From contig DJWJ01000026.1 of assembly GCA_002440965.1 (NCBI GenBank), positions 23,439-87,438 on the forward strand: a stretch of DNA of 64,000 nt, written 5' to 3'. Shown piece by piece: positions 8,321 to 52,100 of the stretch. This DNA comes from Candidatus Omnitrophica bacterium UBA6233 (lineage in GTDB: Bacteria; Omnitrophota; Gorgyraeia; Gygaellales; Profunditerraquicolaceae). The position numbers and the translations under genes are program-made. The number at the start of each line of letters is the position of its first letter. Positions within the stretch are counted from its first letter, which is position 1. Below the pieces are notes generated by a model that was not told the DNA's origin, did not search any database, and saw nothing but the letters and a program-made list of their open reading frames with translations.

Positions 8321-8322
8321 AG

Positions 8323-9631: not shown

Positions 9632-9692
9632 ATCTGTCCTCCTATAATATAGTCATTTCCGGCTATTTTCTTATCTAAAGGCGGAATATTAA

Positions 9693-9721
9693 AATTTAAC
9701 ATAAGTTACTGGAAGGGTCAA
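9693..9721 (-). promoter_or_regulatory. Candidate sigma70-type promoter (TTGACC-N17-TAAATT) upstream of the SBP/permease genes
   Basis: Read on the minus strand: TTGACC (9721..9716), 17 nt, TAAATT (9698..9693), in the 115-nt gap between the PilZ stop and the SBP start. Sequence match only. Confidence 0.25.
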
Positions 9722-9746
9722 GGCTTTTATTCAGGTTTTATTGCAA

Positions 9747-10061: not shown

Positions 10062-10101
10062 CTTTTACCCCCTCTCTTTTAATAAGCGCCTGCGCCATTC
10101 T

Positions 10102-19100: not shown

Positions 19101-22100
19101 TAAGATAAAGAACCGCAGGCTCACCGATTCTAACTAAATCCTCCCATCTTTCTTTAGCAATAAAGTAAAGGATTTCTTCTTCCTGACTTACAGGCTGCCA
19201 TCCTAATTTTTCCAAAGCTTTTGCTGCGCATGCACGGACATAATGGCTTTTATCTTCCAAAGCTTTAATAATGACCTGCGTTGCTCTTATATCGCCAATC
19301 TCACCCAAAGTCTTTACTATAGGCATACGAACCATGGCATTATATTCACGATTAAATCTTTCAATCAAAGGTACAACTGCCCCTTTGTATCCAAAGTAAC
19401 CGAGGCTACTAGCTGCGCCGGCACGAACAAACTCATCGGGATGCCTTAATTTATATACATATTTTCCAAATTCTAACTCAAAGGACAGAACTTCTTGCGC
19501 TAAACTTTCTCCTTCTTCGACATTCTCTATGCCGATGGCTAAATCCCTATCTTCGTGTTCAAATACTCGGATTAAAAGCTCTTCAGGGAGTGAGATTATC
19601 AAGTCAAAAGTAAAAATATCCGGACAGGCTACTAAAAATCTCCTGGAATGCTCGTACCAAAGCATGCCCGGAGGACTTCTTGAATTTATACCTGACTCAG
19701 AAAGGACAATATAAGGATTGCGTTCCTCTAACCATCTTGCTACTCGGGGTGTTACTGCTAACTGCTCTTTTTTGTCTTGAGGTAAGTCTTGATAGCGTAG
19801 GAGGCGCTTTTCTTTTTTAGCTTTAAACAAAGCTTCCTTTTTCTTCTGCTGGGCTTTTTTATCAATTTTCCCTTCTTTTGTGTAAATTCCCAAACCGCAG
19901 GCATAGACATCGAAATCTCCTCCTGCTTTCTCCTTAACCACCAATGGTTCTGCCAAAGTATCTAAAGCTTCGACGTTCTTCTTTAAAATCAGTAAATTAT
20001 CCTCGATTTCCTTGTATAAGATGACTTCGGGATATCTTATCTCCTCCAAGGGGATAAAGAGATCTGGGTTTTTTATCTTTTGAAGTATAGCTGCTGTCTC
20101 AATCAAGGCTCCATTAAAACTAGCTATCGTATTTAGCAACGCAACCTTCTCCTGGACAACCCTATTATTCTTATTTCGAAGAGATGCTTCAAGAATAAAT
20201 CGCTCTTTCCTGAGATGCTTAAGATAAGCAAATATCTGTTCTTCTATTATTGGATTCAAACCCTCATCCTTGTTCCCCATGTGGTATTCCAATAACAGTA
20301 ATATTTTTTTCATCTCCCGAGAAAAATATTTTGCCATATCCAATGTTTTCTTTCGACTCTCTTGTAATCGATATGACACTAAGATACTGACTGTGCCTAA
20401 AAATGTTAAAAGACTTATCGCCATGTCAGCTAAACAACTAACCAGATTTCCCGCCATAAAGATCTCTTTTGTAAAAAGAAACACGGGAGAAAGCATTATA
20501 CCTGTGATAATCGACCCATTAACCAAAGCCGCCAGCGCCCGCTTGGGATCTCTTTCGATATACCGCATAAAACCAGGACGATAACCTGCTATAATAATCG
20601 TCAACATAACAGATGTAACAAACGAAGCGAGAGCAAAAGCAATAGCCGACACGGATAAAATCGTAAACTTAACGTATTCCCGCGGACAGACGATGCTTAT
20701 AAAAAAAGATAACAGAAGAGACAAGGCTGCTATAATTATTGATGTTTTTACTCCGCAAAACTGCGTTCTTTTGTTCAATCGGACTTTCCAAACAGACGCT
20801 TTCAATCTCATCCTTACCTTTGATATTATGAATATGGCTAATAGAGGTAAACTGAAGATACTAAAAATATAAACTTTAGAGATGCGGTTTTTTAATAAAA
20901 CTTTGGCTATAGTCTTACGAGTATCTTCATTCTTTTCGCTGAAGAGACTCTTAACAAGAGAAAGAAATGCCCGGAAGCTTATATTCTTTTTCCCGCCTAA
21001 GCCCCTGGCGGCGCAGATGCGGACATAATAATCTTTGTCTTTTAATAATACGCTGGCCAGGCACTCTTCTGTTTTAAGGCCGTTAAAATTACTTAGCGCA
21101 TTGACAGCGGATGCGCGCACGCGCTGATCCGGATGGTTAAGCGCTGCTTCGCTTATGAATTTGGCGCTTTGCGCGGTTCCAATCTTCCCGAGAATGCGGA
21201 TTGCGGTATCGACAGACTGCCACCTTTTGTCCGATAACAAAACGTCCTCAAGGAAACTGACGGCCGAAGGCTCCATGCTACCAAGGGTTTTTTCAGCCAT
21301 AAAGCTAAGGCTATGATACCTGGAATCCAAGTCGTAATACTTATACAATGACAATTCTAAAAGAAGCCATGCCGCCGGATCGCCTTTCTTCTTTAAAGCG
21401 CCCCAATCCCGCCTAGCCAGAAGATAAAGAATCCCCTGCCATTCGCTCTCAGGCTGCCATCCCCAATTAGCAAGCGCCTCTGCCGCAGCAAAACTGACCC
21501 AAGGATCCATATCCCTAAGCGCATCCGCCAATAGAGCCCTGGATTCAGGAAGATCAACCCTGCTTAATTCGCGCACTATGGCCAAACGCTCCTGCCAATT
21601 TTTATTCCCGAATCCTTTTTCCAGGATAATATCGGCAATCTTATTTCCACCTTTACCGGCTAGAATTCCCTGTGTGTCTAAACGAGCTATCAGTTTCTTG
21701 GCCCTGTAAAGGACGATCTGCTCTCTTGCCGATGGCGATATAGCATTCGTAGTCTCAGGGCAATACGTGGCAGAAATAGAGAAAAACACACCGGCCGCAA
21801 AAATAACTCTCAAGATAATCTTTTTTGAATGAAACAGGTTATCTTTTATTTTTAAAAGGGCATTTTTTAGACGACGCATAGCGTAGGACAAAATCTCGGC
21901 ATAACCGGCCCTAAAAAGAAACAAACCATATCCCCAGGAGGGAAGAGTAACAATCATTTCTTCTTTACCGAAAGTAACCAGGACACTCTTCGAGCAGAGT
22001 TTCGCTATAAATCTGTTGTTTATTTTTCCCGGCACTCCGGAGTTGCCTTTATAATAATCAAGAACAGTATTGAAGTTTATTTTAATAATTACTGGATAAA

Positions 22101-25100
22101 GCGAGTGATTAACAAGGACTATGGCGTCTTCTCCGGGCAGGTGCCGCACAAAAGGCACTAACCCTGTATCTTTAATATCAACTTTTCTCCCGCAGAATTC
22201 TATTTCTTCCAAATATGCGCTGAAGAATCTTCCCTTACGAAAAACAGGCCTGGATATAAATTTAATCAACTCTGTGAGCGGCCTAACCGCCAGGGAATTA
22301 TCTTTTAAAACATCCGGGTAGGAAAACTGATAAATACCCGCGTCAGGATTCTTCATCATTATGCGCGCTCCCGGAGGAATTCCCATACCGAAAAGCTGAC
22401 GCAAAGGGATAAGAACATACCCGGGGACAGCATAAGAAATCATTGCCGCAGCCATAAGGCGTTCCATGCCGCCAAAAGCGGCCATTGCCGGAGGCTCATC
22501 GTGAGTTTCGACAAAATGAACGCAGCGGCTTAAGAACTCTTCCTTATGCTCACCCATAAATAGATATCCCCGCAAAGAAGCAATATTCCCTTCTCTAAGC
22601 AAATCGTAGAGATATTTATCATAAGGAATCATCCCGCATTTCTGCAGCGTATCATGCGTCCCATAACCATAAGTTTCAGCCAGCATCAACATATTCGGAT
22701 ATTCCTTGCGGGCATCCTCCCAGAATTCATTAGGCATTGATTTTTGGAATTCTTCCCAGCTTATCCCTAAAGGCTCAACCCAGGTCTTCCAGGTATGCTC
22801 TTTTAACCCCAGGTGCGCCAGATCCGCCCTGAAACCGCCGTTATGGGTAAGATAAGCGATCTTGGCCATTATCTCCTTGATCATGAATCTGCGCGCCCTT
22901 TCATCAAAATAATTCACCTGGGCCAGGTTTATCATCGGCGGGTTCTGTTCAAAGAAAGCGTTTTCCCGGGCATGCATAAAAATAAGCCCGGATGTTTTAT
23001 CCTGTGAAAATGAGTGGTATTCATTTTCTATTAAGAATTTCAACTGCTCATCGCAAAGCCCCCGCGACAAGTTGGGAAAATATCTACGCGCCAATTGAAC
23101 GAATCTCTGGTAATCACCGCTTATTGTTAACTCCGGAGCTTCCTTGATTAATGGTGAATCGGCGGCAATATGGTTAGTTACAAAATCAACGACGACCCTT
23201 ATATTTTTGTGTTCCAAGTTTTCGGCCACCGCCCGGAAATCTTTTTCATTACCGGCGACTTTCGGATTAATGCCGTATTTATAGACATCGTAGCCGGAAG
23301 GGCCCCTCTTCAATGTCTCATTATCTTCCTTGTTCCACTTCTGCATCAATTTCCCGGAAAGCTCGCTTTCTTCCCATGACGCTTTAAACCAGATAACTCC
23401 GATACCCATCCCGGAAAGCCAATTCCAAAATCCCGCGGGAACCCTGTCTACGGTTCCATAAGTGTTACTTAAAGCGCGGCCGTCAATTTCAGTAATTATC
23501 TGCGTGGATTCTTCGGGGGGCCTGCGGAATTCGTTGCTCAAGACAGCGATGGTAGATATTCTTTCCATCTCACGGATATAACTTTTATCAATCTCCGCGA
23601 TTTCTTTTAATTGCTCCACGCCCAGGAGAAACGCCCCTAATTCTTTTCTGTGGTCTCTGTAATAAATGTGGGCATTATGACAAGCGCGTTTATGCGCTTC
23701 TCCCGGAGGGCAATGTAATTCCTTTAATTCTCCTGATTCATGGAGACAGATATCGGGAAGCAATATTTCCTGCAGGCGAGAGTCTTCGATAAGTAACCAG
23801 TGGATAACAAACACCAAAGTATTTGCGTATCTTTTGATTTCAAAAAACTTCCCGTTCTTTCTGCCAATAAGTTCAACTTGTATTTTTATCTGCGGCGGAG
23901 CATGGATTAAAATACCTTCCAGCACTTTTTCTACCTGACTAAGTAAACTCTCTTGCTCCATTTCCGTAAGTTTCCCGCCTATTAAAAATATTCTCAACCC
24001 GGCTTCCCCGTTCTTCTTTTCCAAAAATACCTCCGGCTTCCTAACTTCTTGTTTTGCTGTCCCATGATAACCGCGAGGATCTTCTTCATTTGCGCTCCCT
24101 AGCCAAAAATTAGTAGAGCCGGCTACGGGCTTGGATTGTTCGGCTAAAAGTTGATTAATTATATTCAGTATTTTTCCGTAAGGGTCGTTGCCTTCAAGTA
24201 TACCCTGGCTGAATTTTCTGTATAATTCCTTATATTTAGGATCATAAAATACTTTGGCGGTCTCCTGCCTTAAATCCCTGTAATCGGTTTCTTCAAGCTG
24301 ATCCGGAGTTTGATTCCGGATAGGATAATAATTAAAACTGCAAAGTATCCGCTCAAGTTCTAGAGCTTCGTCGTCAGCCAGGATCTTTTCCTTGTTAAAC
24401 TTTATGATCTTATCTATAAGGTTAACGAACAACCTCGCTTTCCATTCCCGCGTTTCGTATAAAAATACCTTTCCAGCGGATATAGCTTCGGTTAAGCTCA
24501 TATCGCCGGTAGTAGCGACCGGTAAATCTGATATGACAACGAGTTTACTAAAAAGTTCGTGCGGTAAGATACCCGAAGGCGCGATAGTCACCTCTGAACC
24601 TCTGCGTGAGGTTGCCATACTACCGGAACCCATATATCCAAATCCTCTTTCCATTGCCTCCTTGCGCAAATACTCTAGCTCCTCTACCCCATTGGCTGAA
24701 ACGAATATCAATTTATTCTTCTTTGCGAATTCCCTGCTTTCTCTTTCGGAAAAACTCAACATCTGCAGATATTCAACAGCCGAATTATAGACATAAACCA
24801 GGCCGATAAGTGCCTGGCTAAAGTCATTTAAACGAAGCGGGCTGATTTCTTGAATGCCGCTTACCGCAAAGATATCAGAAATAACCTTTTTCCTTTCCGC
24901 AAGCTTTTCTTGAGAATTTAAATTATCGTAATAGGCTTTATACTTAAGAATAGCCGATTCAACAAAGAACCCAATGGCTTCTTTACCAAATCCGGCCTTA
25001 AGCATCAATGCTGAAGGCGACTTGTTCTTCTTAACAGAAGAGGATATTCTCTTAACAGGCGGCACATAATCATATTCTTCCAGGGAGATTTTAATATTCG

Positions 25101-28100
25101 GGGTTCCTCTCAATGCTTCAAAAACGCTTTCTTCCCACCCTTCACTTACAGAAATAAGGATATCCTCTTTTTTTAGGTCTTTTTTGAGAGCCTCTATTTC
25201 CTGAAAAGCTATTTCAACCCCGCTGTCGGCAAGGAATCTGCCAAAATTAATCTTTATAACTTCGTTAAATACGGCCTCATCTTCGGGCCTTCGTTTTACA
25301 TTAACTAATTTTAGTTCTACTTCCGGGACCAATTTTTTTAATCCCTTCGCAAAATTGGCCGCTTCTGCCGCATCACCGCATCTGCCAAAATGCCTGAAGA
25401 GAACTATTATCCTCCCTTTTATCCCTGACGAAGGCGGGCCGCAGATTCCATTAGGCTGGACATTTTGAGGCTTAAGGTCTTTAAGTGGAAGGGGAGAATT
25501 TTTATTCAAGGTGTAATTTTTTAAAAGAAGGGTATCGAGCGCTTCCTTTATCAAAACCCACATTTCCGCTTTTCGCGAGCCGATCTCTGCCAAATGCAAC
25601 TGATACACATCCTTAGTCAGCTTCTTTAATTCCAATAACTGTTTTACCTTTTCAGCGTTAAAAGATAATTCGAGTTCCTCGAAAGCCTTCTCCAGTTTTT
25701 CGGCAAGAATAAGCGCGGCGCGGGAATCATCGTCTTGCGGTATATTATTTAATGTCGCGGCGGCTAATCTAAACAGTTTTCTTTGTTCGCCGCGCGATAA
25801 TCTCCGGTTAAAATACTCTCCAAGCTCGCTTAGATAATCATTAACGTTAATATGCGCGGGCAACCGCCGCTTTTGGTGTTTCTTGGTTGCCGGTATGGCC
25901 ATCAAACTGCGGATAAGCGAACTGGTAATTACTTTCGAACAAGCGGCAGCCTTCATTATTGCCTCTATAAAGTCTTCATCCGCGCAGATAATAGAATCAG
26001 TGCCATAGCTCTCGCCATCCAGATGAGTGGACATCCAAAATACCGCCCTGAAATTATCCTCGGCCCTCTCCTTCCTCAAGGCGTCAATAAGCGCGTTCGA
26101 TTTCTGCAAAACAATATGTTCCAGCTGACAAAATTTTGCCTGTTCAACACAAACCTCTTGGCCTTTGTAAGGATATCTTTTGGAATCCCGCAGCAACTCT
26201 TCCACACTGGAATCTTTAACGCAGTATTCATCCCTGCCAAGCTTATTAATCCAGGCGGCAATATCTTTTATCCGGGCAATTTTAATTAATCTGTCCAACA
26301 TCAGGCTGTCTTCTCTAACGGCAATCTTGGATTTAAAAGTAAAACCTTGCAGGCTGTCCGCGTCTGCTACCACATCCTCATCCGAAATAATAGCGGCCGC
26401 CAGCAAATAGGCTATAGCCGGAGAAACCCTAAAATTGTATTTAAAATACCTCTGCGCAAGGATAGCGCAAGTGCAGGATACCGAATCTTTAATTTCAGAA
26501 TTTTTAGGCGCAGGAATATCGTTTAATTTAGGATGGTGGTCTATGATCGAGATTACCTCAAAAGCCCTGAGCTCTTCTCTTTCAACTCCGCTATAGTCAA
26601 ATGAGGCAAATTTTATTTTCCCTCTTGCTTCATCGGGCATCCGGGCAATCTTTTTGATCGGTTCTTCGATGTTTTGATAATAAATCATATCATTTTCTTT
26701 AATACCAACGTCCCCCAAAACATCCCTTGTCCCCTCATCTAAGCTATCATTCATTACCGGGAAATACTGAACCTTTTTTTCTTCCCCGGGGAGAATATTC
26801 TTAATTTTGGTAAAAAGATGCGCGCCCAAGAATGCCGAGATGCCGCCATCTTTTTCCTGAGTCCGATGCGGCAAGCAAATAACTATTTCTTCATTTATCT
26901 CTTCTCCCTTAGCAATCTTTTCCAAGTAGCCCGTGAGTTTCTGTAAGTTCTGCTCTTTTGAAAACTTTTGCAAATCGGAATCGAAATGCTCCGGAATAAT
27001 ACTTTTTTTGCTTAATAGTTCATTTTTATTTTTGCCTGAATCATCAGGATTTAAGGGTTTTAGGCCATTTATAAATTCATCCAAACCCTTGGCTATAGAG
27101 TTCTTGAATCTTTCAGCCGATTCCACAAAATCACGGTCATATTCAAGGAGCCGCTTTCCTTCCTGGACCTGGCTTAAGAAAATGGTTTTATTTTCTTCGC
27201 ATTTCTTATGCAGCTCCACAGGTTTGGCATATAATTTCAGGAATACTCCAAAATCATCTGCTCCCAAATCATTTTTAGCTGCCTGATAATACCCATACAC
27301 CTCTAAAAACATCAGGAATGACTGCCAACCGATTGCCGCAGACAAAAGATTAGGATAATCTTTAAGGATATTATAAACAGGCCCGCTGATGTAGATAGCC
27401 CCCCGCTTAAGAGAATGACGAATATAACAACGGGAACCGTTCTTGCCCTGCGCAAGAAAAGGATAGGCCTGGCCTGTTATCTCCAGAGCGACTATGTCGA
27501 GATTCCTTTCATCGAGGAACTTATTATAGGCTTCCTTAATCTCTTCCGGAGCCCATCCGTTTAAATACCCAAAGGCAGCCAAAGCGGAAATAATGCCCGG
27601 GGCAAGCTTTTTTATTTCCCGGATGGTTTTTTCAATACGGCTTCTCTCTTTAAACCTTCTGTCCTCACACCCCTTTTCGCTGGAGGAAAACTTAATATCC
27701 TTATCTCCCCACAATAAATACATACCTCTGCTTTTTCGAACCGACTCTTTTAAAATCTGTTCGGGTATCTCATCGACAGGCAAAAGCACTTTCTTTATCA
27801 GTCCTGCGACATCCGAGGAAAAGATATAGGTAAGGATAGATTTCATTTTAAAATAAAAATATTTCGGACGGACAGTCCCTTTTATCGCCGCTAAAAGGGA
27901 TTCATTGCTGGCCTCAACATAAAACTTCTTTTCTTTTTCTTCCCGCGATAAATTAAACTTAAGGGAATTTACGTCACTGATTTTTATAATCTTTATGTGC
28001 GACTTCCAGCGATTCAACAGAACATCCCGGTCAAAAGGCTCATTCTCCGTATCAATAGTTTTAACTGTTATATTCGCTACAGGAAGAACCCAGCTGATAA

Positions 28101-31100
28101 GCCTGAATAAACTTACTACCATAATATTGAGCAGAGGCCGTTCCTTAATATATTCTAATGTCTTTTTCAAAATTTTAAGTTGCTCGGTATTAACTGCGTA
28201 AGGGGCTCTTACATCCATTAAAGCCAAAGCAATACAATTGCTTTCCCAGGGCTTAAGCCCGGCCTCATCAAAAAGAGACAAAGGAAGGTTTCCCTCGGGG
28301 TGAATACTTCCATCAATCAATTCCCATTTTCTATATTCTCCTTTATACTTACCTATCCATATTACCGGATTAAATATTACGGGAAGCGAAATACTGGCTC
28401 TTATGGCTAAGTCTATGGGCATATCCGGGCAATTCTCTGCGTTTAGCTTCAAGAGCCTCTTAGTGAGGTAATCTACAGCTGTAACTGTCAGATTAAACGG
28501 GTAATTGGCTTCTTTAAGCTCACCGAAAGTGGGGATAAAACCAAACCTGTCTATTATAAGGCTTCTAATCCACTCTAATACGGCGTCTCCTTTAGATATT
28601 CCTCCGCGGGAAAGAAGATTCCAAGTGAAACCAATACTGCCAACGGGAGGGTTGGAGAATCCGGATGCGTCCGTATCGTATGCTTTTTCTTTGGCGGCCC
28701 TGGCATCATAACCAAGCATCAAGAATAAAGCGACAATTGCCCCTATTGACGTCGCTCCCAGATTAGTAAAACAATATCCTTCTTTTTCTATTGCCTCTAT
28801 AATTTGGTAATAACGTAAACCGTCGATGCCGCCTCCGGGAATTATACCGTAATCAATCAGCTTCTTGCTTTGCCGGTATTTTTCAATCTCCGGGATTACC
28901 TTTCGAATCTGCTCTTTTCTCCATTCTTTACATTCAATATCTGGTCCTTTGGTATCCGGCGATACTGCGGTTTTCTCCTTGTGTCTTTCCTTAAAATCGG
29001 AGATCTCGGCAGCCAGGCCGTGCCAAAAACAAAAGATGGCAAAGGCAAGCATAGGAATAAAGAAAAAAACTACCGTCAGGAATAAACAGGTGTTTTCACT
29101 TACGTTAGAACCCGGCCCCATGGGCCAACCGGCAGTTAGAATACCTGTTAAGAAAAAGGTTGTTAGAGATACAACAGGCAGGAATAAACGGAAAATGCGG
29201 CTGCGGATTCTCGCTAAAATACTGCCGGATTTACCGGCTGGCGGCTGGTTGCGCGCTTTATCCGGTTGAACGGAATTTTGTGTTTTGGAAGCGCTTTCGT
29301 TTTCCGGAAAAATAAGAATATTCAATTCGGTTTCTTTATCAAAGAAATACGCGCGTTTCATATCAAATACTACGTCTATCTCTGTGTCTTTCTTGGGCCG
29401 GCCTTTTGTAAAGACTGCCTTAAAATTAATGCCATCAACAGAAAGCCCAACCTCTGCCTTTGAACCTAACTCTTCAGTTATATCTACTTTTACATGCACC
29501 GCATTATATGGACTATATAATCCCTGAACCTGAACATTCTGGGCATATAGCTTATCGTATATATCATTTGGCCTTATGCCAAAAAAGATATCCTTATTAA
29601 CATAGCCGGATATTTGCTCCGCCATTGTATCGTCAATTTTTAGAATAAAATTTTCTCCTGCCTTAAAATAATACCCTTCATTTCGTAAAATCTTCCCTTC
29701 TATGAAATTCATCGATGGGGAACCGATAAAACCAGCGACAAATTTATTCTTCGGCTTATCATAAACATCCATAGGTTCCCCGATTTGCTGGATAGTGCCG
29801 TCTTTCATCACCATTATCCGCGTGCCCATAGTTAAAGCTTCAATTTGATCATGGGTAACGAAAATAAAGGTGGTCTCTTTGCCTAAACGCTGATGCAGCT
29901 TTTTCAGCTCGGTACGCATCTGGCCGCGCAGCTTAGCGTCTAAATTACTTAAGGGTTCATCAAAAAGAAAAACCAACGGTTTACGCACAATAGTACGACC
30001 GATAGCCACGCGCTGTCTCTCGCCGCCGGAAATATTACGAGGCTTCTTCTCAAGCAGTTCTACGATACCTAAAATCTGGGCTGCTTCCGTAACTTTAGCT
30101 TTAATCAATTCTTTCTTTACTTTTCTCAGCTTTAACCCAAAAGCCATATTCTCAAAAATTGTCATATGGGAATAGAGCGCATAATTTTGGAAAACCAGAG
30201 CAATGTTACGGTCTTTTGCCGGCGTGTCATTAACAAGATTGTTTCTTATATATATTTTCCCTTCGCTTATCTCTTCCAAACCAGCAATCATCCTTAGTGT
30301 AGTAGACTTCCCGCATCCTGACGGCCCGACTATAATAAAAAATTCTCCTTCATCAACCTCAAAATCTATGGATTTAACCGCATAATGCACCGGATCCTTG
30401 CTTCTGCCGGGATAAATTTTACTTAACTTAACGGCTCTCACGCTCTTATTCAAAGCTGAATCGCATTCTTTTACCCTATCGGCCTTTTGATTAGCTTCGG
30501 TTTCTGAATGCGCGAATAATCTGGTTTGGCTAAGTCTTTTTGCTTGATAAACTTTGATTGCTTTATAAATTTTATAGCCCAGATAAATCAGTAGCCCGGC
30601 AGATATAACCACTTTAGCTAAAACGGACAGTCCGCTTAAAAACGGCAAGCCGGCGAACAAGGATACATTGGCCGGAGAAACATTGGCATAACAATCCCGC
30701 ATTTTTTGGTACCGATCATTCAAGGAATTTTTCTTTGCGCCGTAAAATCTAAAAGACGGGGCCCTATCTTTAGAAAATATCCACTCCGGCAGTTCATCCT
30801 GCAGGATTTCTTCTTCCGGCCATAGCGGTATGCTCATCCAATCCATCCCGCTTATATCGATTGCGGCAAACAGCTTCCCTAATCTTCTCTGATGCGCCTG
30901 AGCAAAGAAACGGCCTCTCGCAGCCCAGGCGAGCGGAGCATCGGTTCCCTCTATTGCATGCGGACCCCTCTTACCAGTAAGGTAATCTAAACGTTTCCTG
31001 CTGTTTTTAAGCGGTATTCCTTCCAGAAGAGCATCCATCCATCCGCGAGTCTTTTCCTCGCTTCCCAGCTCTTTAGCGTAATCCAGAATATATTTTCCCA

Positions 31101-43100: not shown

Positions 43101-46100
43101 TTGCCTCTTCCTGCGTAAAATTCTCTTCCCTTACCCGCAATATCTCATCGCTATCGAAAATGCTCAGCGAAGAGTCTTTGGTTTTCAAGGCGGTTACGGC
43201 GGCAACGATTTTTTCGTCGGCATAGGCGGCCCGGATTTCTTCGCTAACGCGCTGCGCCCCGGCTAAAGACCTGCGGTAAAGCTCGTCATTACCCTGCGCC
43301 AATGCTTTAATAATATCATTTCTTGCGCCGTAATAATCAATGACTGCCTGCGGCAAGGTATCCTGTTTAAACGCCCCCGCCACAAGATTGTCGGCCGAAC
43401 GCTCCAATTCATCATTCACTATCCGGTATTCAAGCTCTTTAGCCTTATCCTGCGTTTCGCCGCTTAACTTGGTAAGCTCGTAGAAAAGAAGTGTGTAAAA
43501 TTTGACGGGATTTTCTTCATTACTAAGAACGGTAAAAAATTCGCTGTCAATATATACCCAGTTTTTGTTATCGTATCTGCCCCAATGCGCCAGCGCGTAT
43601 GCGTCGGGGGCGCGGATAAACAAGCCGGGTAAAGCCTGTCTTTCTTCGATGACAACGACGTTTGTTTTCTTAAATAGCTCGGCTAACTGCTCTAAATGAT
43701 GCTCCCGGCCGAACGCATCGATACCTGCAAAGAGCTGCTGATATTTTCTCCGCTGATCCTTAATCCGGCCCTTTTCCTCCTGCCCCCATACTAGATACAC
43801 TTTCCCCTCATCGATCTTCTTCCTTATATTCGCGTCAATTTCTTCATCAGTAATATTCCCGCGCCCGTAAGCAGGCGAGGTAGCGCTAGCCTGATTATTC
43901 TCACGTAGGAATTTTACAAATTCCGGCGCTCGACGCTCGATTTCGCGGACCAGTTCAATCACCATCTCCTCCGGATTTTCGTCTTTATAATTAACCGCCA
44001 GGACAAAATCCCGAAGTTTCATAATACGGAAGCTGCCATCCATACCGACCACGGCTGATTCATACCAATTATCCCCCACTACTTTACCCAACCATATCGC
44101 ATACAAAGGATAATTTTTCTGCAGAATGTCGAGAAGGCGGCTATCCGGTTTAATTTTTTTAGTCACACGCACTATGCCGGCAGGAACGATTTTATACACT
44201 AAATCGTTACCTTTGATAGACGCGGCAAAAATTCTATCGGATGTTTCCGCAATCTTCCGGGCCAACCGCGTATCGACGCAGCGCCGTATAAATGTCTGCA
44301 AAGGGCACAGGGCCGAAACACCTAAAGTTTCGATGTAAGACCAATTTTCTTTAGCAATATAACAATGAACCTCATCTTCAAAATTTATATCTTTTCCCGT
44401 ACGCTTGTTATGAACCAATGTGCCCAGCAGTAATTTAGAAGCGGCTTTACGTAAATTTCGATTCTTATCGTATAAGGCGTTTTTAAGAACGGATAAACCT
44501 GCTTCGCTGCTAATTGAACTTGAAGCATTCAAAAGATCCAGGTTTGCGATTGCGACTTTGCGGCCTTCTTCTTGCGGGCCGCTTAAATACCTTATACAAA
44601 TTTCAATTGTTTGCTTTCTCCTGGCCCCTAATTTATCCAAAGAATTGAGCGCACAGCTAAGATAAGGCGCATCTTTTAAAAACTTGAATAAAAGCTCCCA
44701 GTCGCCATCTTCTAAAGCTCCGATTATCCTATTGCACGCAGAATATTCCTTTCGGTTCTTTAGGATTTTCAATAAACGCGCTAATACCCTTGGATTCATA
44801 GAAGAAAAATGACTATAATCCTGGATTTTTTCTTTTCCTATAAATTCCTTCGAGGCGCGAAAAGCCAAAAGTATCGGCAACAGAAAATACCAAGCTAAGA
44901 AGCTAATCAACAATAAGCTGGCTACTATAGAAAATACTATTAACAAAAGAGGAAGCTGGAGTTTAATAAAGTTACCTGCCGACATTAAGAAAAACCAAGA
45001 TATCTTGCCAATGAAACCAAGAAGAAAGAACAAACCAATAACGTAAAAGAGAAACGCAAAGAATGTTTCCCAGAGTGGGGAACGACCATCGTTGGCGAAA
45101 CCTATTATAAAAGAAGCTATAGATATGCTTAAAACCACCTTGATTCCAAAAATTACAGCTGTAGCCACAGCGATTGAGCCTTCTCCAGCCAGAGCCAAGG
45201 CGGGAATGGCAAAAAGGAAAATACTGGCAAACAAGGCGCTAAGAATAACTACACCCAAAGCGCTGCCTCTCTTCATATTTAGACTACTATTTATTAACGA
45301 TCCCATCCCGACAGCAGGAACATTTTTTGCAGGGATACTATTCTTTCCGTTTATTTCGAGTGCTTGCCTATTATTAAAAAGCGTCTTTTCACTTAGTTTC
45401 TGTATCAATTTTTCCACTAAATTATCACGCCAAATGTCTATCGAATGTCCGAAGGTTAGATGAAAATCTTCTTTAGGATAAAAATAGCCGATAATGGTTG
45501 TACCGAATTTCTTTTTGTTGGAGGTAGAATATCTAATTACAGGCATTCGCATATCGCCGAATATATCAGTATTACCAGGAACGATAACTGCCGTTTCTCC
45601 CGGATGTTCGATTATAGAAAGGCTTGCGAAATCACAAACAGCCGCTGATAAGCCTTGACCGTATTTTCCACCAATGCCAAACGTCTTATTCCACTGTATT
45701 GCTTCAGAGATAGACACAACCCTGTTTTTCATATCTCTAAACCCATCCCCATTATCTGCCACTAATACTCTAGATTGCCCAATAACAACTATAGCCAAAC
45801 CTTCAGGGACATGTTGCATGACATTCTCTAAAGCAATTCCTAAAAACTCCGCTTTACCGCTATGTTCTTCTAACTCAAACATTCTTGCGGCGTTATGACA
45901 AAGAGAGCGCCAATTCTCCCTTTTCTTCTGCATCTTATAATCAATGTATTTTCTTTCCGTAACGATGGCTGAAGGAGAGGCAAAGATCGCGGCATTTGTT
46001 ACTATGCCTCCAAATTCTTCAAAATTCTTTATAGAATCAATAGCCGATTTACGTAAATCATCTATGCCTCTTGATTCTTTTGTAGACTTACGATCCAGAA

Positions 46101-49100
46101 CCATCGTTATTGAAACAGTAGCAGAATATGGACGATACTCCTTCTTCAGTTTTATCCCGAATTGTTTGGCTGCGTGGAGAAACTTAGTCAATTCTGCGGG
46201 GTTATTCCGGAAATAGGCGTAATCTAAGGCAAGGGCTTTTGGTTCTTTAAGGCCCTTGATAAGATGAGATCCTACATCATGGAAGATGATAACGTTGATA
46301 AGGGCCTGGAAGGACTGTAATTCGGGGTTATCTGTGTCAAAAGGAGGCGCCCTTGCTGCCAGGCCTGAGTCGAATTCTACCTTGTTGTTGATCTTTTCCG
46401 CAAGGGAGAGGTTGAATCTATTGCTTAACACAATAACTTCTTCTGGCTTTAGGGTAATCCCAAGAACCCTGAAGCTCTCCTTAATGTAATTCAAGAGATT
46501 ATTGATCTGGCTTTCTGTTATAGCCTTACGCTCTTTTTGACTAAGAGGAAGAGATGCGGGGAAATTATCCAGGCTTGAAAGCAGAAAGCTAGCTACGACA
46601 AGAACAATAACAGGAAGAAATGTATATTTAAAAACTACTTCCAACTTGTCAGGATTAAGGTTTAGTATCATTATCATGGGAATAACAAGAATACCAATAA
46701 TGGGCCCTAAAAATAATAAAACAGCAAAACCGGTATTTTCTCTGGAGAAAACTCCATCCCATTGTTTTAATATAGAAAAATATATGTAAGAACCCGCAAA
46801 ATATAGTATCAACACCATAAGACAAATAGCTATCTCATGCATTTGTATAAATCGCAATGCCGCAACAATACTAGGAGCAAAGAATAGGCTAGTGGTTAAA
46901 ATCAGGGAAACCACTAGGCAGGCATCAATAACACTATTCGTCACCTCATCGCTTTGCTCTATCGTCCTACGCGCTGCCTCTAAGAACCCGGCATCGCGGC
47001 TCCTTTTTAACAATACAACCGTAGCCTTAAAAATGGCTAATATAGAAAACGCGGACATAATACCTATACTGATAAAAAATGCATTCGTCAGAGTAATGGA
47101 GAAATTGGCTGCTCCTGAAGTAATCATTTGTCCTGCGGCCAAGGCGGGAATGGCAAAAAGGTAAATACTGGCAAACAAGACGCTAAGAATAACTACACCC
47201 AAAGCGCTGCCTCTCTGCGAGGAGAAATCAATTTTCTTATTGTTGTATCTGGAAAATAGAAGGTTATAGAGAATTTCAGCCTGTTTATTTCTGGAGAGCT
47301 TGAAGAAGTAGGTATTAAGATAAACGGTCCAGCCTTCTCCTTCAATCCAGTTGTAGCGGCCGACCTTATTAGCGGTAAATGCGGGGATAGAGGTAATTAT
47401 TATCTTTCCCGGAATAGGCGGAGAACGCAGGCCAAACTGTTTGAACCTATCCGATAGCTGCTTTAAGGTTGTGAAGAAAAGACTGTTCTTTGCTTCATAG
47501 CTTTCTGTGGAGAGCTCAAAACCGGTCAGGCTTAAGGTAACGTGGCGCCATTTCAGTTTATCTTCCCGGCTAAGCTGCTGCTGGAATTCTTTAGGCACAT
47601 CCGGCAGGCAAGAATCCAAAGCATTATCCTGCCCTGTGTAATCCTCCCTGGTAGATGGCACATCTAGAACATCCCGAAGGACATTTAATGTTCTTTTGGA
47701 GGGGATAGCGGCAAAAGAAAAAAGCAGGGACGGCAACCAATAGGTAGGATCCATCGGAAACGAACTCTTAGCTATACATACTTTATTCTCATTGTTTTTA
47801 TTTACCCGCCGCGAAATAGCAATTAGCTCTTTTAAGAGCATCGACTCTTCCCGGACATACCCTCTAAGTTTTTCCAGCAGTTCTTTTGCCGGAATCGCAA
47901 TTATTATTTCTCGAGCAGTAAGTTTCGTAGCTGTCTCTTCGCTGCGGAGGCCTCCTAAATGCCGGAATTCTTCCCTGAGGCCATAGATAAGAAGCGACCT
48001 TTGAGTCTCATCGTCAAGTGCTTTATCAAATAAAGCGGAGCTTATGGCTATGACTTCGAAATTTTTGAAGCTATGAGTTTCAATGAAATATGTGGTAAGG
48101 TCAAAGAGAGCGATGTAGACGGGTTTGCCAGAAAAAACAAAGTTATCTACATACTCATCCTCTACATCCAATGCCTTCTTTAGCAAACTGCCCATAAGAC
48201 CGCTGCTAAATACCGGGTCTAGAATAAATTGCCTGGAGACATTTGTGGCGGTATCGGCGATATTTAATCTGATCCAATTGCCTGCTTGTTGTGCTGCTTG
48301 CGGAATCTCATAAGCAGCCTTACTGTCTTGGGTGGAAGGTTGGCCTTGAGGCGCTTTATAAGGAGAGCTGGCGGACAACTCAAGCTGAAGGGCGTTGGCT
48401 GACGCAAGATTTTGCCGGGAGGCAAAAAACTTAAGAGTATTCGACCGGAAATATACCTCTATCTCCTTAATTAGGCCTGCTCTTATCTGTTCGGCATAAG
48501 GCGCGGGTATCGTATCCGAATATATTCTGACCGGATTTCCCTCTTTATCATCGAAACTTATTTTCCAGGGAGACACTCCTTCTTCTCCGAAGGTGCCCTT
48601 CCCGGACGAATTATGGTAGATGACATTGGTTTTGCTTAAAAATTTGAAACTGTACCGGCCGTGTTTATCGAATAACCAACCGGCTAACGACGGAGCAAAC
48701 TTTAGGTTCAATTCATTCCGCTCATTCAGGAAGAATGGCCTTTTGCCCAGATTCATTATCAACCATATCTGTAAAAATTCTACGGTTGAGCCGGAAAGGC
48801 GAGCCACAAAACCGTTCCCCTGCAAGCTCTCGTCGGGATAGGCGCTGCTTGCCAGAAACGAGGAATTTTCCAAAATGCTGCGGCCGTATCTTTCAGGGCT
48901 CTGGAATGGAATGAGCGCGGATTTAAAATCCTCATAGAACTGCTCCGCAAGCCCGCTTTTTAAAGTTTCCAAAAGATACTTGTATTCCATATGCAGCCAG
49001 ATAGATTCGTTTTCTAACCATCCCGAGGGGAATGTCCGGCATCTGCCGATTTCTTCAGGCATCCCTTCAAGGGAATCGCACACTTTATACATCTTAAGCT

Positions 49101-52100
49101 TTCTATCATAAAGCCCGCTATTTCTTACTGCTCCATATAAAGCCTGCGCTTTATCCGCGCTTTCGGTTGTCCTCAAAGCATGCACAAAAGACTCCAGGAA
49201 TAAAGGAAGCGCCTTCTGGGAGAATTCCAAAGGCTTTATGCGCTGGCCATCAAGGATTTCGTATTTAGTAACTTCATTGATAAAGTAAGCCGGGTAGGTA
49301 TTTTGCTGTTTGTCAAAAGCCTTATCGATACCAAAGCCTACTTTCTTTAAAAAATTATCCAGGATTAAGATTAATTCGTTTACAGATAGTTCTTTTTCTG
49401 CGCCGCTAAAACCAAATTTTGTTTTCAGGCGGTAGTCCTCTTTATACGAATACGCCTTATCCCAATAGGCATAATCTTTTTCAGCCGCCGCGCTCTCAAA
49501 ATATTCCCTGGTTAAATCGTTAAGCTTGGCTAAAAAGTTATAGACCTCTTCTGTTACAGGCAAAGTTTCTATAGCTGCTTGTTCAAGGGAATCTTTGATA
49601 AAAATGAGCAGCCTCTTTAGCTCGAAGGTTTCACAGAGAGAAGAACCGAAAAGCGCAGGCAGCCCGTTTAAAGCATCATACCAATTAGGCTTACCAGCCT
49701 CCATCTCGATTCCTATTCCAAAAGGATCGAGGCTAGCCATTTTATTGACCGCAAGGCAGAGTAATTTATTTATAAGAGTAGTCCGGTAAATTTGGCCTTT
49801 GCCATAATCCGTTCTTACGAGATTAGGCGATACCGCTCTCCCCTGAATCATTGCTTTTTTGTCGCTATCCGCGCAAATTGAATTGAGCTGCCTTGGCTGG
49901 TTGTTCAACAGGGTATATTTCTCCGCTCTGGGTTGAATTACCTCAATATTGTCGAAATAAGTAAATTCCTTCTTCTCGAAGATTATGTTTTTGCACTGTT
50001 CCGGATATACCCCTAAGAAACTCTCCAGAAGGTCAAGATTATAAGTCCAGTGGTCGGTCCAAAAACCTTCGCCATGTTCGGCTTCCTGGATTTTCGCCGC
50101 ACAAGAAAGAATAAATGAGATAAATTTATCATAGGAGGATTTAAGTTTAATCCCGTTATTCTCGATGAACATAGCCAATTCCCCGGGGGAGAAAGGCTTG
50201 GCGAAAAATTTCTGCAGTGGAGAGATATCGGTTGCTTCCGTATAATCCATCAACACCGTCTCTATATCTACTCCCTCTTGTATCTTAAAGCTGGCTCCCT
50301 TTACTACCAGAGGATTAAAACCGTCTGCCTGCAGGAGATTGAAGAAACAAACCAGGTTTTCCTCTTTTACCTCGGGATTAAACCAGACATCGAGCCTGCG
50401 GTTCTGGTTTACGTCGCGGTAGTTGCCGTTACCTTGCGAGAAATAAGACGCCTGCGTCACGAAAGAATTATAATCTCTCTCCAAATCGCCGTGTTTGCGC
50501 GAATAAAGATAGAAAACCTGCTTTGCCTTGCCGGAATCCGGGCGGAACACAACCGGATAGCCGCCGCGCATGATGTTATCCAAGTAGGTCTGCCCTGCGT
50601 AAAGATCAAATTCCCTGGAACTGCTTTTTGTAGCAACATCGTCCTTGAGCTGCGCGATAACCTTTGCGTTCTCCCTCTTTTTCTGTTCAATATAACCGGG
50701 GGCGATAATCCTGGAGATAGAAGAATTAAGCATTTTAAGGTCGCGCATATTGCCGATTACTGTATAAAGCGTCTTCTCTTCCCCTGCGGCCAGCTCGAGA
50801 TTAAAAGGAGAAAAGGCGCACGGGGTCCTGCCAATAGTTACCTGATTGGCCGGATACCGGAAATCTTTTTCCTTTGAGAAACAAACCGGCGTCGAGAAAG
50901 CGGTGTCCTGTCCGAATACCTGCTGAGGATCGACAACCGGCTTTATAATCCTCGGCCCTTCTTTGGTATGAATAAAACTTAAGTAGAAATTCCCTTCTTC
51001 TATATGAATCACCTCGGGTTTATCCGCAATTTCTACACCAAGCTTAAAGAACGGGACGCCGTTTTCAAGATTCTTAACCGTAAACCAGGCTTCGGCAGTC
51101 CGGGACACATGTTTAAGCAGCCAATCATTAATGTATGCAGGAGCGATCTGCGGCAGGCCGTCCAGCAACTGCATCTTTACCGGCTTCTTGCCCGTATTTT
51201 TTAGGGAAACGCTCCTGATTAAACCGGCGAAGGTGTCGTTGGGAACAGTGGCGTAATCTACGGTTATCCCGATGCCGGCAGACGGATTGCGTTCGGCTAT
51301 CGTCAGGCCGTGCGAGCTAATCCGCATATCTTCAACCGGCCCATTCTGGAACGGCTCATAGAAGGCAGTTCCCTTATCACTTGTTACCTTTATAAAAGTG
51401 CGGAAGCCGTGGGAAGCGGCCATCTGCCAGGCCTTGTTTGCCGGCCAAAATTCCAATATCGCATGATCCTTATCCTTTGTGCCGAAGCTGGCTATTCCCT
51501 GGCCGCGGTTAACATAAAACACCCACATCGGTATGCCGTATTTACCGGCGATACCGGGGAAAAAACTGGCAAACGGCTTGGCATAATTATAATTTTCGAT
51601 TACAAATTCATCCTTATTGTTAAGGGAATATTTAGGGGTTTTGGAAGAAGCATCTTCGCTGGAAGCGTTTTCTTTAGGAGCAAAAATAATATTCTTGATG
51701 GCTGAATTAATCTGGCTGGTGATTTCAGGGGATTCATCCTGATGGAATGCTCTCTGCAGGTCATTGTCTTCGTGGATAAGCAAGCTGGTTAAGGCCTTCA
51801 TTGCCGGAGGGCCTTGCTTGTAAAAACCATCCAGGATAACCGAAGAATGATTAATGATCCTGTTTACTCTTTCGTAGGAACCGTAGTTAGTCAAAAGGAC
51901 AAAGTTCTTTCCGGTAATCCTGCCGGTTTGCGCCAGGCCTGTTTGGCCGGGTTTAACCAGAATTAACCGGTGAGTTGTATTAAGCAGGCTTTGACGGGTA
52001 TTTTCATCCGGAATCGCAGCAATAGCCTGCTTGAGCATTTCAGCAAGAGGCCTGTAGGCAACAGGCAGCTCTTCAATCTTAACTTTGGGGCCTAAGATAT

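Follow-up and report, generated by a model that had tools for sequence, protein, structure and literature searches.

Giant proteins of the Omnitrophota that unite many enzymes in one chain have been described as a class of multi-enzyme metabolic clusters with a topology of transmembrane (TM) helices only (Nielsen & Lui 2026, bioRxiv 10.64898/2026.06.07.730766; West-Roberts et al. 2023, bioRxiv 10.1101/2023.11.21.568195). Phosphorylases of family GH161, which share clan GH-Q with GH94, are phosphorolytic enzymes, predicted to be cytoplasmic and encoded beside ABC transporters and beta-glucosidases (PMC6484121). The giant gene analysed here encodes, in our best reading, a new member of the multi-enzyme class, made of whole, ordinary enzymes that are fused in frame and tethered to the inner membrane, and its central part would be a cytoplasm-facing chain for sugar uptake, sugar catabolism and signalling; we put the probability of this reading as a whole at about 0.65.

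The giant reading frame and its relatives

The window, i.e. the whole stretch of 64,000 nt that was analysed, comes from a Candidatus Omnitrophota MAG and contains a single stop-free frame of 17,939 aa (10102-63921; this and all features below lie on the minus strand). The frame is still open at the window edge (64000) and the protein has at least 17,939 aa. Since the N-terminus may lie beyond the window, a signal peptide could be encoded further upstream. The part which the initial annotation took for a lytic toolkit extends from aa ~4100 to 13960 and represents the central ~9,900 aa. Like the published multi-enzyme giants, the chain is of Omnitrophota origin, is longer than 10 kaa and is tiled by about 20 distinct Pfam families with none dominant; its ROK, radical SAM, HD and HEAT/NHL content matches theirs, it has dozens of TM helices with no evident signal peptide, and it is flanked by GH2-type genes. 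Outside the central part there are an enzyme like isopropylmalate/homocitrate synthase, a ROK kinase, a radical SAM module and two sigma-70 modules. Unlike the published giants, it carries GH161, GH13, patatin, ABC-ATPase and sigma-70 modules, which are mentioned in neither paper, and an ABC sugar importer is encoded directly downstream, where only a weak import signal had been reported. It also differs from Archaeovorin, whose hallmarks (dockerin, TSP3, C39 and SecA-DEAD) were all absent, together with S8, from domain searches of the giant protein.

Could the frame be chimeric through assembly, or could neighbouring genes have run together recently and by accident, with no function as a unit? 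This is hardly credible for a frame that runs through 17,939 codons without a stop at 42% G+C, whose module junctions are open in independent assemblies, whose modules and linkers are under purifying selection (dN/dS 0.14-0.42), whose GH161 and MalK modules, the two examined, start without a Met or start signal, and whose class is documented across hundreds of genomes. A second metagenome contains a 98%-identical independent copy that is open over 2,545 codons, C-terminal parts are found with identical sequence on one JGI and one NCBI contig, and the flanking gene for a solute-binding protein has one identical counterpart in NCBI GCA_041649345.1 and another on a JGI contig. The best 80 genome loci for the GH161 module all belong to Omnitrophota MAGs or mislabelled PVC MAGs. 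A dN/dS of 0.14-0.32 is likewise in keeping with a real gene. What may be held in favour of an artefact is that homologs were undetectable for many stretches of the chain and that aa 2154-3501 are missing from a 90%-identical gene; this module-scale indel between close relatives indicates that the module content is fluid.

Enzyme modules of the central part

The first large module, aa 4105-5156 (48454-51609), had tentatively been called GH94-like. It matches two GH161 phosphorylases of solved structure, 9h8v and 9qqk, along their full length (E 5e-247, 826 bits), belongs with known GH161 enzymes such as PapP of Paenibacillus polymyxa (PMC6484121), and is a beta-1,3-glucan phosphorylase module of the size of a whole gene. 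Because GH161 and GH94 share a clan, the tentative call was right at the level of the clan and wrong at that of the family; the module is a phosphorylase and not a hydrolase. The residues conserved in known GH161 enzymes are kept: 263 of the 268 columns that are at least 97% conserved in 77 stand-alone homologs are retained, and dN/dS is 0.14-0.16. In about 76 of 80 species GH161 is a stand-alone, stop-bounded ORF of 1,065-1,150 aa, and a signal peptide is absent from 75 of the 76 stand-alone Omnitrophota homologs. Embedded copies occur, among the 80 species, only in two relatives that are ~90% identical. The N-terminal motif of the stand-alone enzymes (KPKY.LN..EFVIENYN) persists in the giant, with no internal Met. 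In contrast to known GH161 enzymes, which are free, dimer-forming proteins of ~120 kDa, the module is embedded in frame in a giant chain; its substrate specificity is putative.

The GH13 module predicted by the initial annotation was fully borne out, including its four conserved regions. It comprises a catalytic and a C-terminal domain (aa ~13475-14010; 21892-23499) with region I DFVTNH (aa 13579-84), region II GFRADLAH (13695-703), region III LAETY (E13750) and region IV FVETHD (13803-08); D13699, E13750 and D13808 are the candidate triad. All four regions are kept in five homologs, and a profile of the module and its homologs matched the GH13 structures 3dhu and 4gkl (E 5e-16), intracellular alpha-amylases of Lactiplantibacillus plantarum and Thermotoga neapolitana, with regions I-IV and the Asp/Glu/Asp triad aligned. 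Again as in the intracellular enzymes, stand-alone relatives lack a signal peptide: one (P0002) adjoins a GH77 amylomaltase, and another homolog is a fusion with phosphofructokinase. Unlike 3dhu and 4gkl, the module represents a very divergent subfamily. PF00128 scores above the gathering cut-off with only part of the model covered, and of the four regions Pfam recognises the first alone; region II is one residue short of the usual GFRxDxxxH, and region IV has Thr in place of the usual Asn.

The patatin-like lipase (aa 11695-11880; 28282-28839) was likewise recovered, by PF01734 (E 1.5e-18, 68 bits, cut-off 27.7) and by the motifs GGGIDG, A-T-S11725-I-G and D11870-G-S, which contain the Ser-Asp dyad. 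The degradative modules GH161, GH13 (an alpha-glucan enzyme) and patatin-type lipase are genuine and look catalytically competent.

These modules are interspersed with others. A full-length sugar ABC ATPase of the MalK/MsmX/UgpC type (aa 11170-11536; 29314-30414) matches 7x0q and 1g29 (E 1e-112) and NCBIfam UgpC (421 bits); as in the CUT1 ATPases 1g29, 6yir and 7x0q, the C-terminal OB regulatory domain is present and Walker A, Q-loop, ISGGE, Walker B and H-loop are intact. Unlike these, it is joined covalently to the rest of a chain that is tethered to the membrane, with hydrophobic anchors on either side. MalK-type ATPases must dimerise, so the in-chain MalK would need two chains or a partner. 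A FabD-like acyltransferase domain with the motif GYSVG (aa 10169-10487; 32461-33417) matches malonyl-CoA:ACP transacylases in the PDB over the full length (E 3e-7; NCBIfam fabD E 1e-14, below cut-off). It is followed by a GGDEF diguanylate cyclase (aa 10543-10699; 31825-32295; Pfam E 1e-44) with the motif GGEEI and an RxxD I-site. A DHH/DHHA2 domain resembling family II pyrophosphatases (aa 12350-12657; 25951-26874) was found with 9m0m (E 1e-9); here the NCBIfam match (E 2e-20) is below cut-off and Pfam matches are under the gathering score.

HExxH motifs and the question of cleavage

Two HExxH motifs that had been suspected to mark zincin-like peptidases are present, with H7044 at 42790-42792 and H10095 at 33637-33639. 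The domain around the first (aa 6960-7200; 42322-43044) has H7044, E7045, H7048 and E7063 invariant across five distant homologs. This HExxH-x14-E site is probably metal-binding and possibly that of a gluzincin-like hydrolase. The conserved downstream Glu is at a spacing of 15 residues; in thermolysin the spacing is 20 residues. In further contrast to thermolysin-like gluzincins (M4 elastase 1ezm), there is no sequence-profile match, and the N-terminal beta subdomain was not confidently modelled. The domain opens a conserved super-module of ~2,000 aa (aa 6860-8724; 37750-43344), in which it is followed by a linker, a VWA domain with the MIDAS motif DVSGS (aa 7793-7939; 40105-40545) and two AAA_5 (MoxR/CbbQ-like) ATPase domains (aa ~8090-8600; 38122-39654), the first with a degenerate Walker A and the second with GEKGTGKD. 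The super-module is collinear with the 5.5-kaa proteins P0007 and P0008 (26% identity, E 1e-166 to 1e-174), and in P0007 no hydrophobic segment separates the HExxH domain from VWA/AAA+. On the cytoplasmic side, the HExxH domain would work together with VWA and AAA+; to our knowledge, no MoxR system (CbbQ/CbbO, NorQ/NorD) has been described in which these two are fused to a zincin-like domain. The second motif, HEISH (aa 10095-10099; 33625-33639), lies in an orphan stretch of ~190 aa, flanked by a weak methyltransferase-like region on one side and by the FabD-like domain on the other; a search for diverged homologs found none, and its AF2 model, with a pLDDT of 34, is too poor to be used.

The whole protein has four HExxH motifs, against 0.3 expected for its composition (0.05% of shuffles reach four), and each sigma-70 copy comes after a paralogous FEHExxHL module. 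It is tempting to see here a polyprotein precursor: a single translated chain from which its own HExxH domains, or proteases of the cell, could release separate enzymes and regulators, e.g. free sigma factors, MalK and GH161. Cleavage has been proposed before for Omnitrophota giants; the modules are whole-gene sized and are normally free proteins or dimers, a tethered sigma factor could hardly join RNA polymerase unless released, and the conservation of the first HExxH site would fit as well. However, profile searches returned no peptidase family for any HExxH region, a scan of 19 module boundaries revealed no recurrent junction motif, and the missing C39 and S8 domains also speak against it. 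We consider this candidate reading doubtful; it is compatible with a cytoplasmic location and differs from ours in that the modules would not function as a single chain.

Membrane topology and orientation of the modules

Topology was read from hydropathy and the positive-inside rule, a heuristic, with no trained predictor. Most of the membrane segments between the modules are hairpins of two helices, whose loops of 2-14 residues are free of Lys/Arg and whose flanks are Lys/Arg-rich, so that the chain returns to the cytoplasm. A clean in-in hairpin (aa 11580-11634; 29020-29184; loop of 14 residues without Lys/Arg, basic flanks) lies between MalK and the patatin domain that follows. A six-helix bundle (aa 5573-5784; 46570-47205) has both ends predicted on the cytoplasmic side. 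Helix counts are ambiguous in three places. The bundle at aa 6221-6357 (44851-45261) has four or five helices, of which four fit the positive-inside rule; that at aa 9320-9529 (35335-35964), immediately preceded by two NHL repeats (36028-36279), has about seven by eye, and an even number is required unless the weak segment 8950-8973 also spans; finally, the single hydrophobic segments 11929-53 and 14034-54 lie on either side of the DHH-GH13 stretch, which might therefore be outside. Altogether, this points to degradative modules that face the cytoplasm and are held at the membrane by hairpins and even-numbered bundles. The catalytic motifs are intact and not degenerate.

The initial annotation had proposed the opposite orientation: displayed on the surface of the cell or on its periplasmic face, the GH13, GH161, patatin and HExxH modules would break down the envelope of another cell, host or prey, in line with the predation hypothesis (West-Roberts et al. 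2023). With so many TM segments some parts must lie outside, probably including the C-terminal GH2_C-like module, which has retained a signal-anchor-like helix; the bracketed DHH-GH13 stretch, the link of Omnitrophota giants to predation and the recurrence of GH2 genes beside them are further arguments. Moreover, Nielsen & Lui read their own 147-kaa multi-enzyme giant as extracellular from DeepTMHMM (bioRxiv 10.64898/2026.06.07.730766), which counts against a cytoplasmic location. Nevertheless, an outward-facing toolkit is unlikely and not supported. Its modules are interleaved with cytoplasm-only MalK, GGDEF, FabD-like and AAA+ modules, which depend on ATP, GTP or acyl-CoA, and further out with the synthase, ROK, radical SAM and sigma-70 modules; the second HExxH motif shares one contiguous stretch with the FabD-like and GGDEF domains, the first with the AAA+ ATPases, and the MalK-patatin hairpin returns to the inside. 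GH161 requires inorganic phosphate and yields glucose-1-phosphate, stand-alone GH161 and GH13 relatives lack signal peptides, dockerin, TSP3, C39, S8 and SecA-DEAD domains were absent from the domain searches, and the exported enzymes of the locus are already separate genes with signal peptides.

These genes follow the giant ORF. First, 40 nt downstream, comes a PilZ (c-di-GMP receptor) gene (9747-10061), then a sugar ABC importer without ATPase (6428-9702), consisting of a lipoprotein solute-binding protein (8323-9702) and two permeases (7281-8153, 6428-7318), and then three separate genes for exported proteins (1574-6421): a GH2_C-like protein of 781 aa with a signal anchor, a protein of 386 aa with a signal peptide and no assigned function, and a GH2_C-like protein of 440 aa with a lipobox. 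The locus thereby pairs GH161 with an ABC transporter and glycosidases, as bacterial GH161 clusters do; in UBA1562, a stand-alone GH161 directly follows a syntenic operon. No gene for the importer's ATPase is among those visible in the window. CUT1 importers often depend on an ATPase that serves several of them and whose gene lies at another locus, and the missing gene is therefore suggestive, but no proof, of the in-chain MalK serving the importer.

In the cytoplasm-facing reading, the exported GH2_C-like glycosidases would cut an external glycan, and the binding protein and the two permeases would bring in the oligosaccharides, with import probably powered by the in-chain MalK. Inside, the tethered GH161 would phosphorolyse beta-1,3-oligosaccharides to glucose-1-phosphate, alpha-glucans would be handled by GH13, and free sugar would be phosphorylated by the ROK kinase; c-di-GMP control would come from the GGDEF module together with the adjacent PilZ gene. 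Most likely, the modules of this giant protein process imported sugars inside the cell rather than attack the surface of a prey.

The giant reading frame and its relatives

The minus strand of the window carries a single stop-free open reading frame (10102..63921) of 17,939 aa, in which residue i lies at window position 63921-3(i-1). In one part of it (aa ~4100-13960) the initial annotation had seen a toolkit for attacking envelopes or prey surfaces. We favour a different reading, with a probability of about two in three: the modules in question are part of an array that is tethered to the membrane, faces the cytoplasm and serves sugar uptake, catabolism and signalling.

The giant ORF is a real gene under selection. 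dN/dS against relatives is 0.14-0.16 for the GH161 phosphorylase module, 0.23-0.24 for the synthase before it together with the linker, and 0.32 for aa 8976-11500. In another metagenome, a 98% copy keeps 2,545 open codons across the junctions of the methyltransferase-like region, the second HExxH region, the FabD-like domain, GGDEF and MalK, and identical copies of the neighbouring gene for a solute-binding protein occur in NCBI GCA_041649345.1 and in a JGI metagenome contig. An alternative genetic code and an assembly chimera were rejected, since the flanking genes use standard stops and the junctions are open in independent assemblies. G+C content is ~42%, and the strand skew is uniform. Upstream of the ATG at 63921, the 26 codons to the window edge (63922-64000) contain no in-frame stop; since the frame is open up to the edge, the protein may exceed 17,939 aa, and its N terminus, including any signal peptide, may lie beyond it.

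The best 80 genome loci for the GH161 module all come from Candidatus Omnitrophota MAGs or from PVC MAGs labelled Planctomycetales, and the closest of them are 90-91% identical. One of these relatives, the giant gene of MAG STD1_202 (locus L004; 90% identity), lacks aa 2154-3501 (window 53419-57462) in frame, i.e. ~1,350 aa with the APH kinase and HD domains. In these genes, entire modules are therefore added or dropped between near relatives. Smaller units are duplicated within the chain: a ~240-aa unit including a TM hairpin occurs in tandem (aa 1650-1886 and 1899-2138, window 57508-58974; 65-74% identity), and the first helix of the membrane bundles at aa 5573 and 6221 is likewise duplicated (52% identity). 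On another Omnitrophota contig (GCA_041653435.1), three gene calls of 1,273, 585 and 721 aa follow each other at distances of 10 nt and contain PFK, PFK plus GH13, and a protein without assignment, respectively; this looks like the broken call of another multi-enzyme giant with GH13 after phosphofructokinase.

Modules of the chain

The ORF was scanned with Pfam in 1,000-aa tiles with a 500-aa offset, it was searched in four blocks against all PDB sequences, and ten modules were run against NCBIfam. The N-terminal part contains a weak P-loop kinase-like region (aa ~112-160), a ROK kinase (aa 802-1102), an APH-type kinase (aa 2740-2947) and a weak HD domain (aa ~3153-3205). A complete synthase catalytic module of the amino-acid-biosynthesis type (isopropylmalate/homocitrate/citramalate-synthase-like; aa 3517-3865, window 52327-53373; Pfam E 3e-78, NCBIfam 390 bits) lies directly upstream of the GH161 module (aa 4105-5156) in the same chain. 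These are followed by a first HExxH motif (aa 7044), a VWA domain with the MIDAS motif DVSGS (aa 7793-7939), two AAA_5 domains of the CbbQ/MoxR-like AAA+ type (aa ~8090-8600), two NHL repeats (aa 9215-9298, window 36028-36279), a weak methyltransferase-like region (aa ~9882-9970), a second HExxH motif (aa 10095), a FabD-like domain (aa 10169-10487) and a GGDEF domain reading GGEEI with an RxxD I-site (aa 10543-10699, window 31825-32295). Further on, there are a MalK/MsmX-type sugar ABC-transporter ATPase with OB domain and every ATPase motif intact (aa 11170-11536), a patatin (aa 11695-11880), a DHH/DHHA2 domain resembling cytoplasmic family II pyrophosphatases (aa 12350-12657), GH13 (aa ~13475-14010), HEAT repeats (aa ~14100-14940), a radical SAM domain (aa 15172-15293), two sigma-70 modules and a C-terminal GH2_C-like module (aa 17509-17917, window 10171-11397).

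The block first annotated as GH94-like is, as judged from its sequence, a complete GH161 beta-1,3-glucan phosphorylase, an enzyme that uses phosphate and not water. It matches the solved GH161 phosphorylases 9h8v/9qqk with E 4.6e-247 and 826 bits (aa 4105-5156 align with residues 2-1030 of the 1039 in the chain) and keeps 263 of the 268 columns that are at least 97% conserved in 77 stand-alone homologs; the five losses all fall in aa 4224-4341. GH161, GH149 and GH94 together form clan GH-Q (PMC6484121), so the tentative call was right in kind, but not in family: GH94 Pfam models had no match in the giant ORF at E<=0.01, and the sole NCBIfam match of the module was GH149, with 114 bits against a cut-off of 1150.

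In ~76 of 80 species, GH161 homologs (54-61% identity) are stand-alone ORFs of 1,065-1,150 aa enclosed by stop codons; the module is embedded in a longer open frame only in two ~90% relatives. The stand-alone proteins start with M..KPKYYLN..GEFVIENYN, and 75 of 76 have no signal peptide. The giant retains KTPKYSLNNKDEFVIENYN at the start of the module, without the Met, and internal start codons as a sign of separate translation were found neither at the GH161 nor at the MalK module start. One MAG has an embedded as well as a stand-alone copy (loci L004 and L031). The giant chain is made of whole genes fused in frame. The order of its modules had no synteny with the genes that surround stand-alone GH161 in the 80 species, apart from the downstream operon of Omnitrophica UBA1562; mere loss of stop codons from an operon thus does not explain the giant.

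Two further calls of the initial annotation, a GH13 domain with all four conserved regions and a patatin-type phospholipase, were borne out. The GH13 regions are read directly as DFVTNH, GFRADLAH, LAETY and FVETHD. PF00128 scores 24.8-26.6 bits on the giant (cut-off 22) and covers only profile positions 30-106; five homologs, one of them a stand-alone protein of 580 aa, all have PF00128 and the same four regions. A profile of the homologs found 3dhu and 4gkl in the PDB (E 4.9e-16) with the conserved regions in register, and those of the Asp nucleophile, the Glu acid/base and the Asp stabiliser align to 3dhu. The patatin module matches PF01734 with 63.9-68.1 bits, 40 bits above the cut-off of 27.7, over profile positions 4-186 of 191. 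Its Ser-Asp dyad is A-T-S11725-I-G, with Ala for the first Gly, and D11870-G-S; the oxyanion motif GGGIDG is slightly unusual in having Asp where GGGx[KR]G usually has Lys/Arg.

Both flagged HExxH motifs are present where they had been seen. The giant protein contains four HExxH in all, 0.3 being expected from its composition, and four were reached in 1 of 2,000 shuffles. For the first motif, a word-indexed search gave one N-truncated fragment only; when 1.8 billion representatives were scanned exhaustively with HMMER, five homologs emerged, two of which are 5.5-kaa proteins. At 25-35% identity, H7044, E7045, H7048 and E7063 are invariant in all six sequences, within the family motif HExxH[YFW]L[AG]-x5-[LI]P[FI]-x4-E. 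E7063 is located 15 residues past H7048, on the next predicted helix, and we infer that it is the third zinc ligand for which the initial annotation had suggested looking. We read the motif as a conserved, probably metal-binding HExxH..E site that could plausibly form a gluzincin-like catalytic centre. Over aa ~6700-8720 of the giant, both long homologs align collinearly (E 1e-166 to 1e-174), and therefore the HExxH domain opens a conserved unit of ~2,000 aa that continues with VWA and two AAA+ domains. The AF2 model built on the alignment of the six sequences (pLDDT 65.8, pTM 0.66) is confident from the HExxH helix on and poor before it, and Foldseek of the model against the PDB gave nothing below E 0.7. 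Neither the first nor the second HExxH region matched a described peptidase family in Pfam (E<=10), PDB phmmer or a family profile against the PDB. The HExxH-x14-E/VWA/AAA+ unit is an uncharacterised domain family that is worth defining.

The second motif sits in an orphan stretch of ~190 aa between the weak methyltransferase-like region and the FabD-like domain. For aa 9975-10180 there was no diverged homolog among 5.8 billion proteins, and in the metagenome scan the sole related locus was 98% identical and reads HEMSH. A single-sequence AF2 model reached a pLDDT of 34, and the only hint, a match to CLCA_N (E 0.057), is at chance level. Membership of the other three motifs in the family of the first was rejected; a local HMM at maximum sensitivity recovered the motif only.

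The two sigma-70 modules (aa 15685-15880, window 16282-16869; aa 16244-16495, window 14437-15192) are RpoD/SigA-like, comprise regions 2-4 (PDB E 2e-57) and are separated by a TM hairpin. Three paralogous modules of ~165 aa (aa 14658-14824, window 19450-19950; aa 15457-15623, window 17053-17553; aa 16065-16215, window 15277-15729) are 48-54% identical, keep the motifs ACGLGIY, RYQDLPQDK, PPG.L.Y and FEHE..HL, and had no Pfam match. Two of the three have HExxH and lie just upstream of the sigma-70 copies; the remaining one reads HEDRD.

A primary-type sigma factor tethered in a membrane chain can hardly be used without being set free. This, together with the whole-gene size of the modules, speaks for a polyprotein from which modules are later released, a reading that does not exclude the favoured one. 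Against it stand the missing peptidase family match and the comparison of 19 module junctions, which beyond the internal paralogs turned up neither a recurring motif for linkage or cleavage nor enriched 4-6-mers. We regard a polyprotein as unlikely.

Membrane topology and the neighbouring genes

By hydropathy, the giant protein has ~40 membrane segments, which are clustered. Five two-helix hairpins (aa 1174-1227, 1644-1693, 1890-1942, 11580-11634 and 15985-16027) have loops of 2-14 residues with no Lys/Arg and 2-5 Lys/Arg on each flank, which is a predicted in-out-in anchor pattern. The six-helix bundle at aa 5573-5784 has an alternating loop charge consistent with both ends inside. A parity count of the TM segments is consistent for the hairpins and this bundle and ambiguous in three regions; uncertain are the helix counts at 6221-6357 and 9320-9529 and the single hydrophobic segments 11929-53 and 14034-54 around DHH-GH13.

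Cytoplasmic fixed points are given by the chemistry of the modules: ROK, APH, AAA+ and MalK need ATP, GGDEF needs GTP, the synthase and the FabD-like domain need acetyl- or malonyl-CoA, radical SAM needs SAM and iron-sulfur chemistry, and the sigma modules need RNA polymerase. There is no membrane segment between the synthase and GH161, and one clean hairpin between MalK and patatin. The second HExxH region runs on without a break into the FabD-like and GGDEF domains; between the first and AAA+, the only hydrophobic stretch (7969-8005) is missing in a 5.5-kaa homolog (P0007). For GH13, the stand-alone homolog (P0002), which has no signal peptide and adjoins a GH77 amylomaltase, another homolog fused to phosphofructokinase and the preceding DHH domain point indirectly to the cytoplasmic side. 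The NHL repeats stand immediately before a bundle of ~seven helices (aa 9320-9529, window 35335-35964), and owing to a weak hydrophobic segment (aa 8950-8973) the ~350-aa NHL stretch might come to lie outside the membrane. It would then form the one sizeable loop in the periplasm, and a candidate sensor.

On the same strand, 40 nt past the giant's stop, lies a PilZ gene (window 9747-10061), followed in order by genes for a lipoprotein solute-binding protein, two MalF/G-type permeases, a signal-anchored GH2_C-like protein, a secreted protein of unknown function and a GH2_C-like lipoprotein. None of these downstream genes encodes an ABC ATPase; the sole one in the window is the in-chain MalK. 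In UBA1562, a stand-alone GH161 gene comes directly after the same operon (69-80% identity), an arrangement that matches the published bacterial GH161 pattern of ABC transporter, glycosidases and cytoplasmic phosphorylase (PMC6484121). Taken together, the downstream gene set and the UBA1562 operon argue that the exported enzymes of the pathway are separate signal-peptide genes and that the glycan enzymes of the giant are intracellular. On an unrelated contig (locus L084), a PilZ gene has a stand-alone GH13 homolog on one side and ABC permeases on the other; with this arrangement, the adjoining PilZ gene and the in-chain GGDEF hint at c-di-GMP control of sugar import.

An envelope- or prey-attacking role, as proposed at first, is very unlikely for the flagged modules, which are interleaved with modules that need cytoplasmic substrates, while the exported enzymes are separate genes. 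The C-terminal GH2_C-like module may be an exception, being probably the sole catalytic module on the outside. This module is 62% identical to an exported stand-alone homolog of 443 aa in UBA1562 and retains a signal-anchor-like helix homologous to the N terminus of that relative; it is also a paralog of the downstream 440-aa lipoprotein, the lipobox Cys being missing.

Relation to other Omnitrophota giant genes

Two preprints are at odds on Omnitrophota giants, which are seen either as extracellular weapons against prey or as membrane-anchored enzyme arrays facing the cytoplasm. West-Roberts et al. 2023 (bioRxiv 10.1101/2023.11.21.568195) proposed prey adhesion, cell-wall digestion and C39/S8 cleavage for giant genes. 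Nielsen & Lui 2026 (bioRxiv 10.64898/2026.06.07.730766) catalogued 916 long proteins; 46% are TM-only, which the authors read as membrane-anchored with cytoplasmic domains, GH2 flanks recur, and a 'multi-enzyme metabolic cluster' class contains ROK, radical SAM, HD and HEAT/NHL. Like the multi-enzyme TM-only class, the giant ORF is from Omnitrophota, exceeds the class minimum of at least 10 kaa and has many Pfam families, none of which dominates; its TM helices come without a signal peptide, as judged by a heuristic and from an N terminus that may lie beyond the window. Unlike the Archaeovorin/dockerin-type giants of West-Roberts et al., it showed no dockerin, TSP3, C39/S8 or SecA-DEAD when the entire ORF was tiled against Pfam. 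It fits the multi-enzyme class without Archaeovorin hallmarks. The module set of GH161, GH13, patatin, MalK and sigma-70, the evidence for whole-gene fusion, the adjacent importer without an ATPase gene and the conserved HExxH-x14-E/VWA/AAA+ unit are mentioned in neither preprint. The giant ORF is a clean test case, since chemistry fixes the location of an ABC ATPase, a GTP-using cyclase, a phosphorylase and sigma factors, and it adjoins an importer and exported glycosidases that complete a sugar-utilisation pathway.

It is tempting to join these features in a tethered 'metabolon on a string', an idea that as a whole we consider quite unlikely. The built-in MalK would dock onto the neighbouring permeases, and beta-glucan oligosaccharides would pass directly to the GH161, GH13 and kinase modules, with uptake tuned by the in-chain GGDEF and the adjacent PilZ gene. 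Built-in proteases or unfoldase partners would be provided by the HExxH-x14-E/VWA/AAA+ unit and by the FEHExxHL modules that precede the sigma-70 copies, and these would release the sigma factors, and perhaps other modules, on demand. If this is true, nutrient capture would be coupled to transcription inside one gene product. If the cytoplasmic reading is true, the story of the 'predatory giant gene' would need part revision for the multi-enzyme class, and the question would be why a tiny bacterium fuses a pathway, a transporter motor and regulators into one 2-MDa chain.
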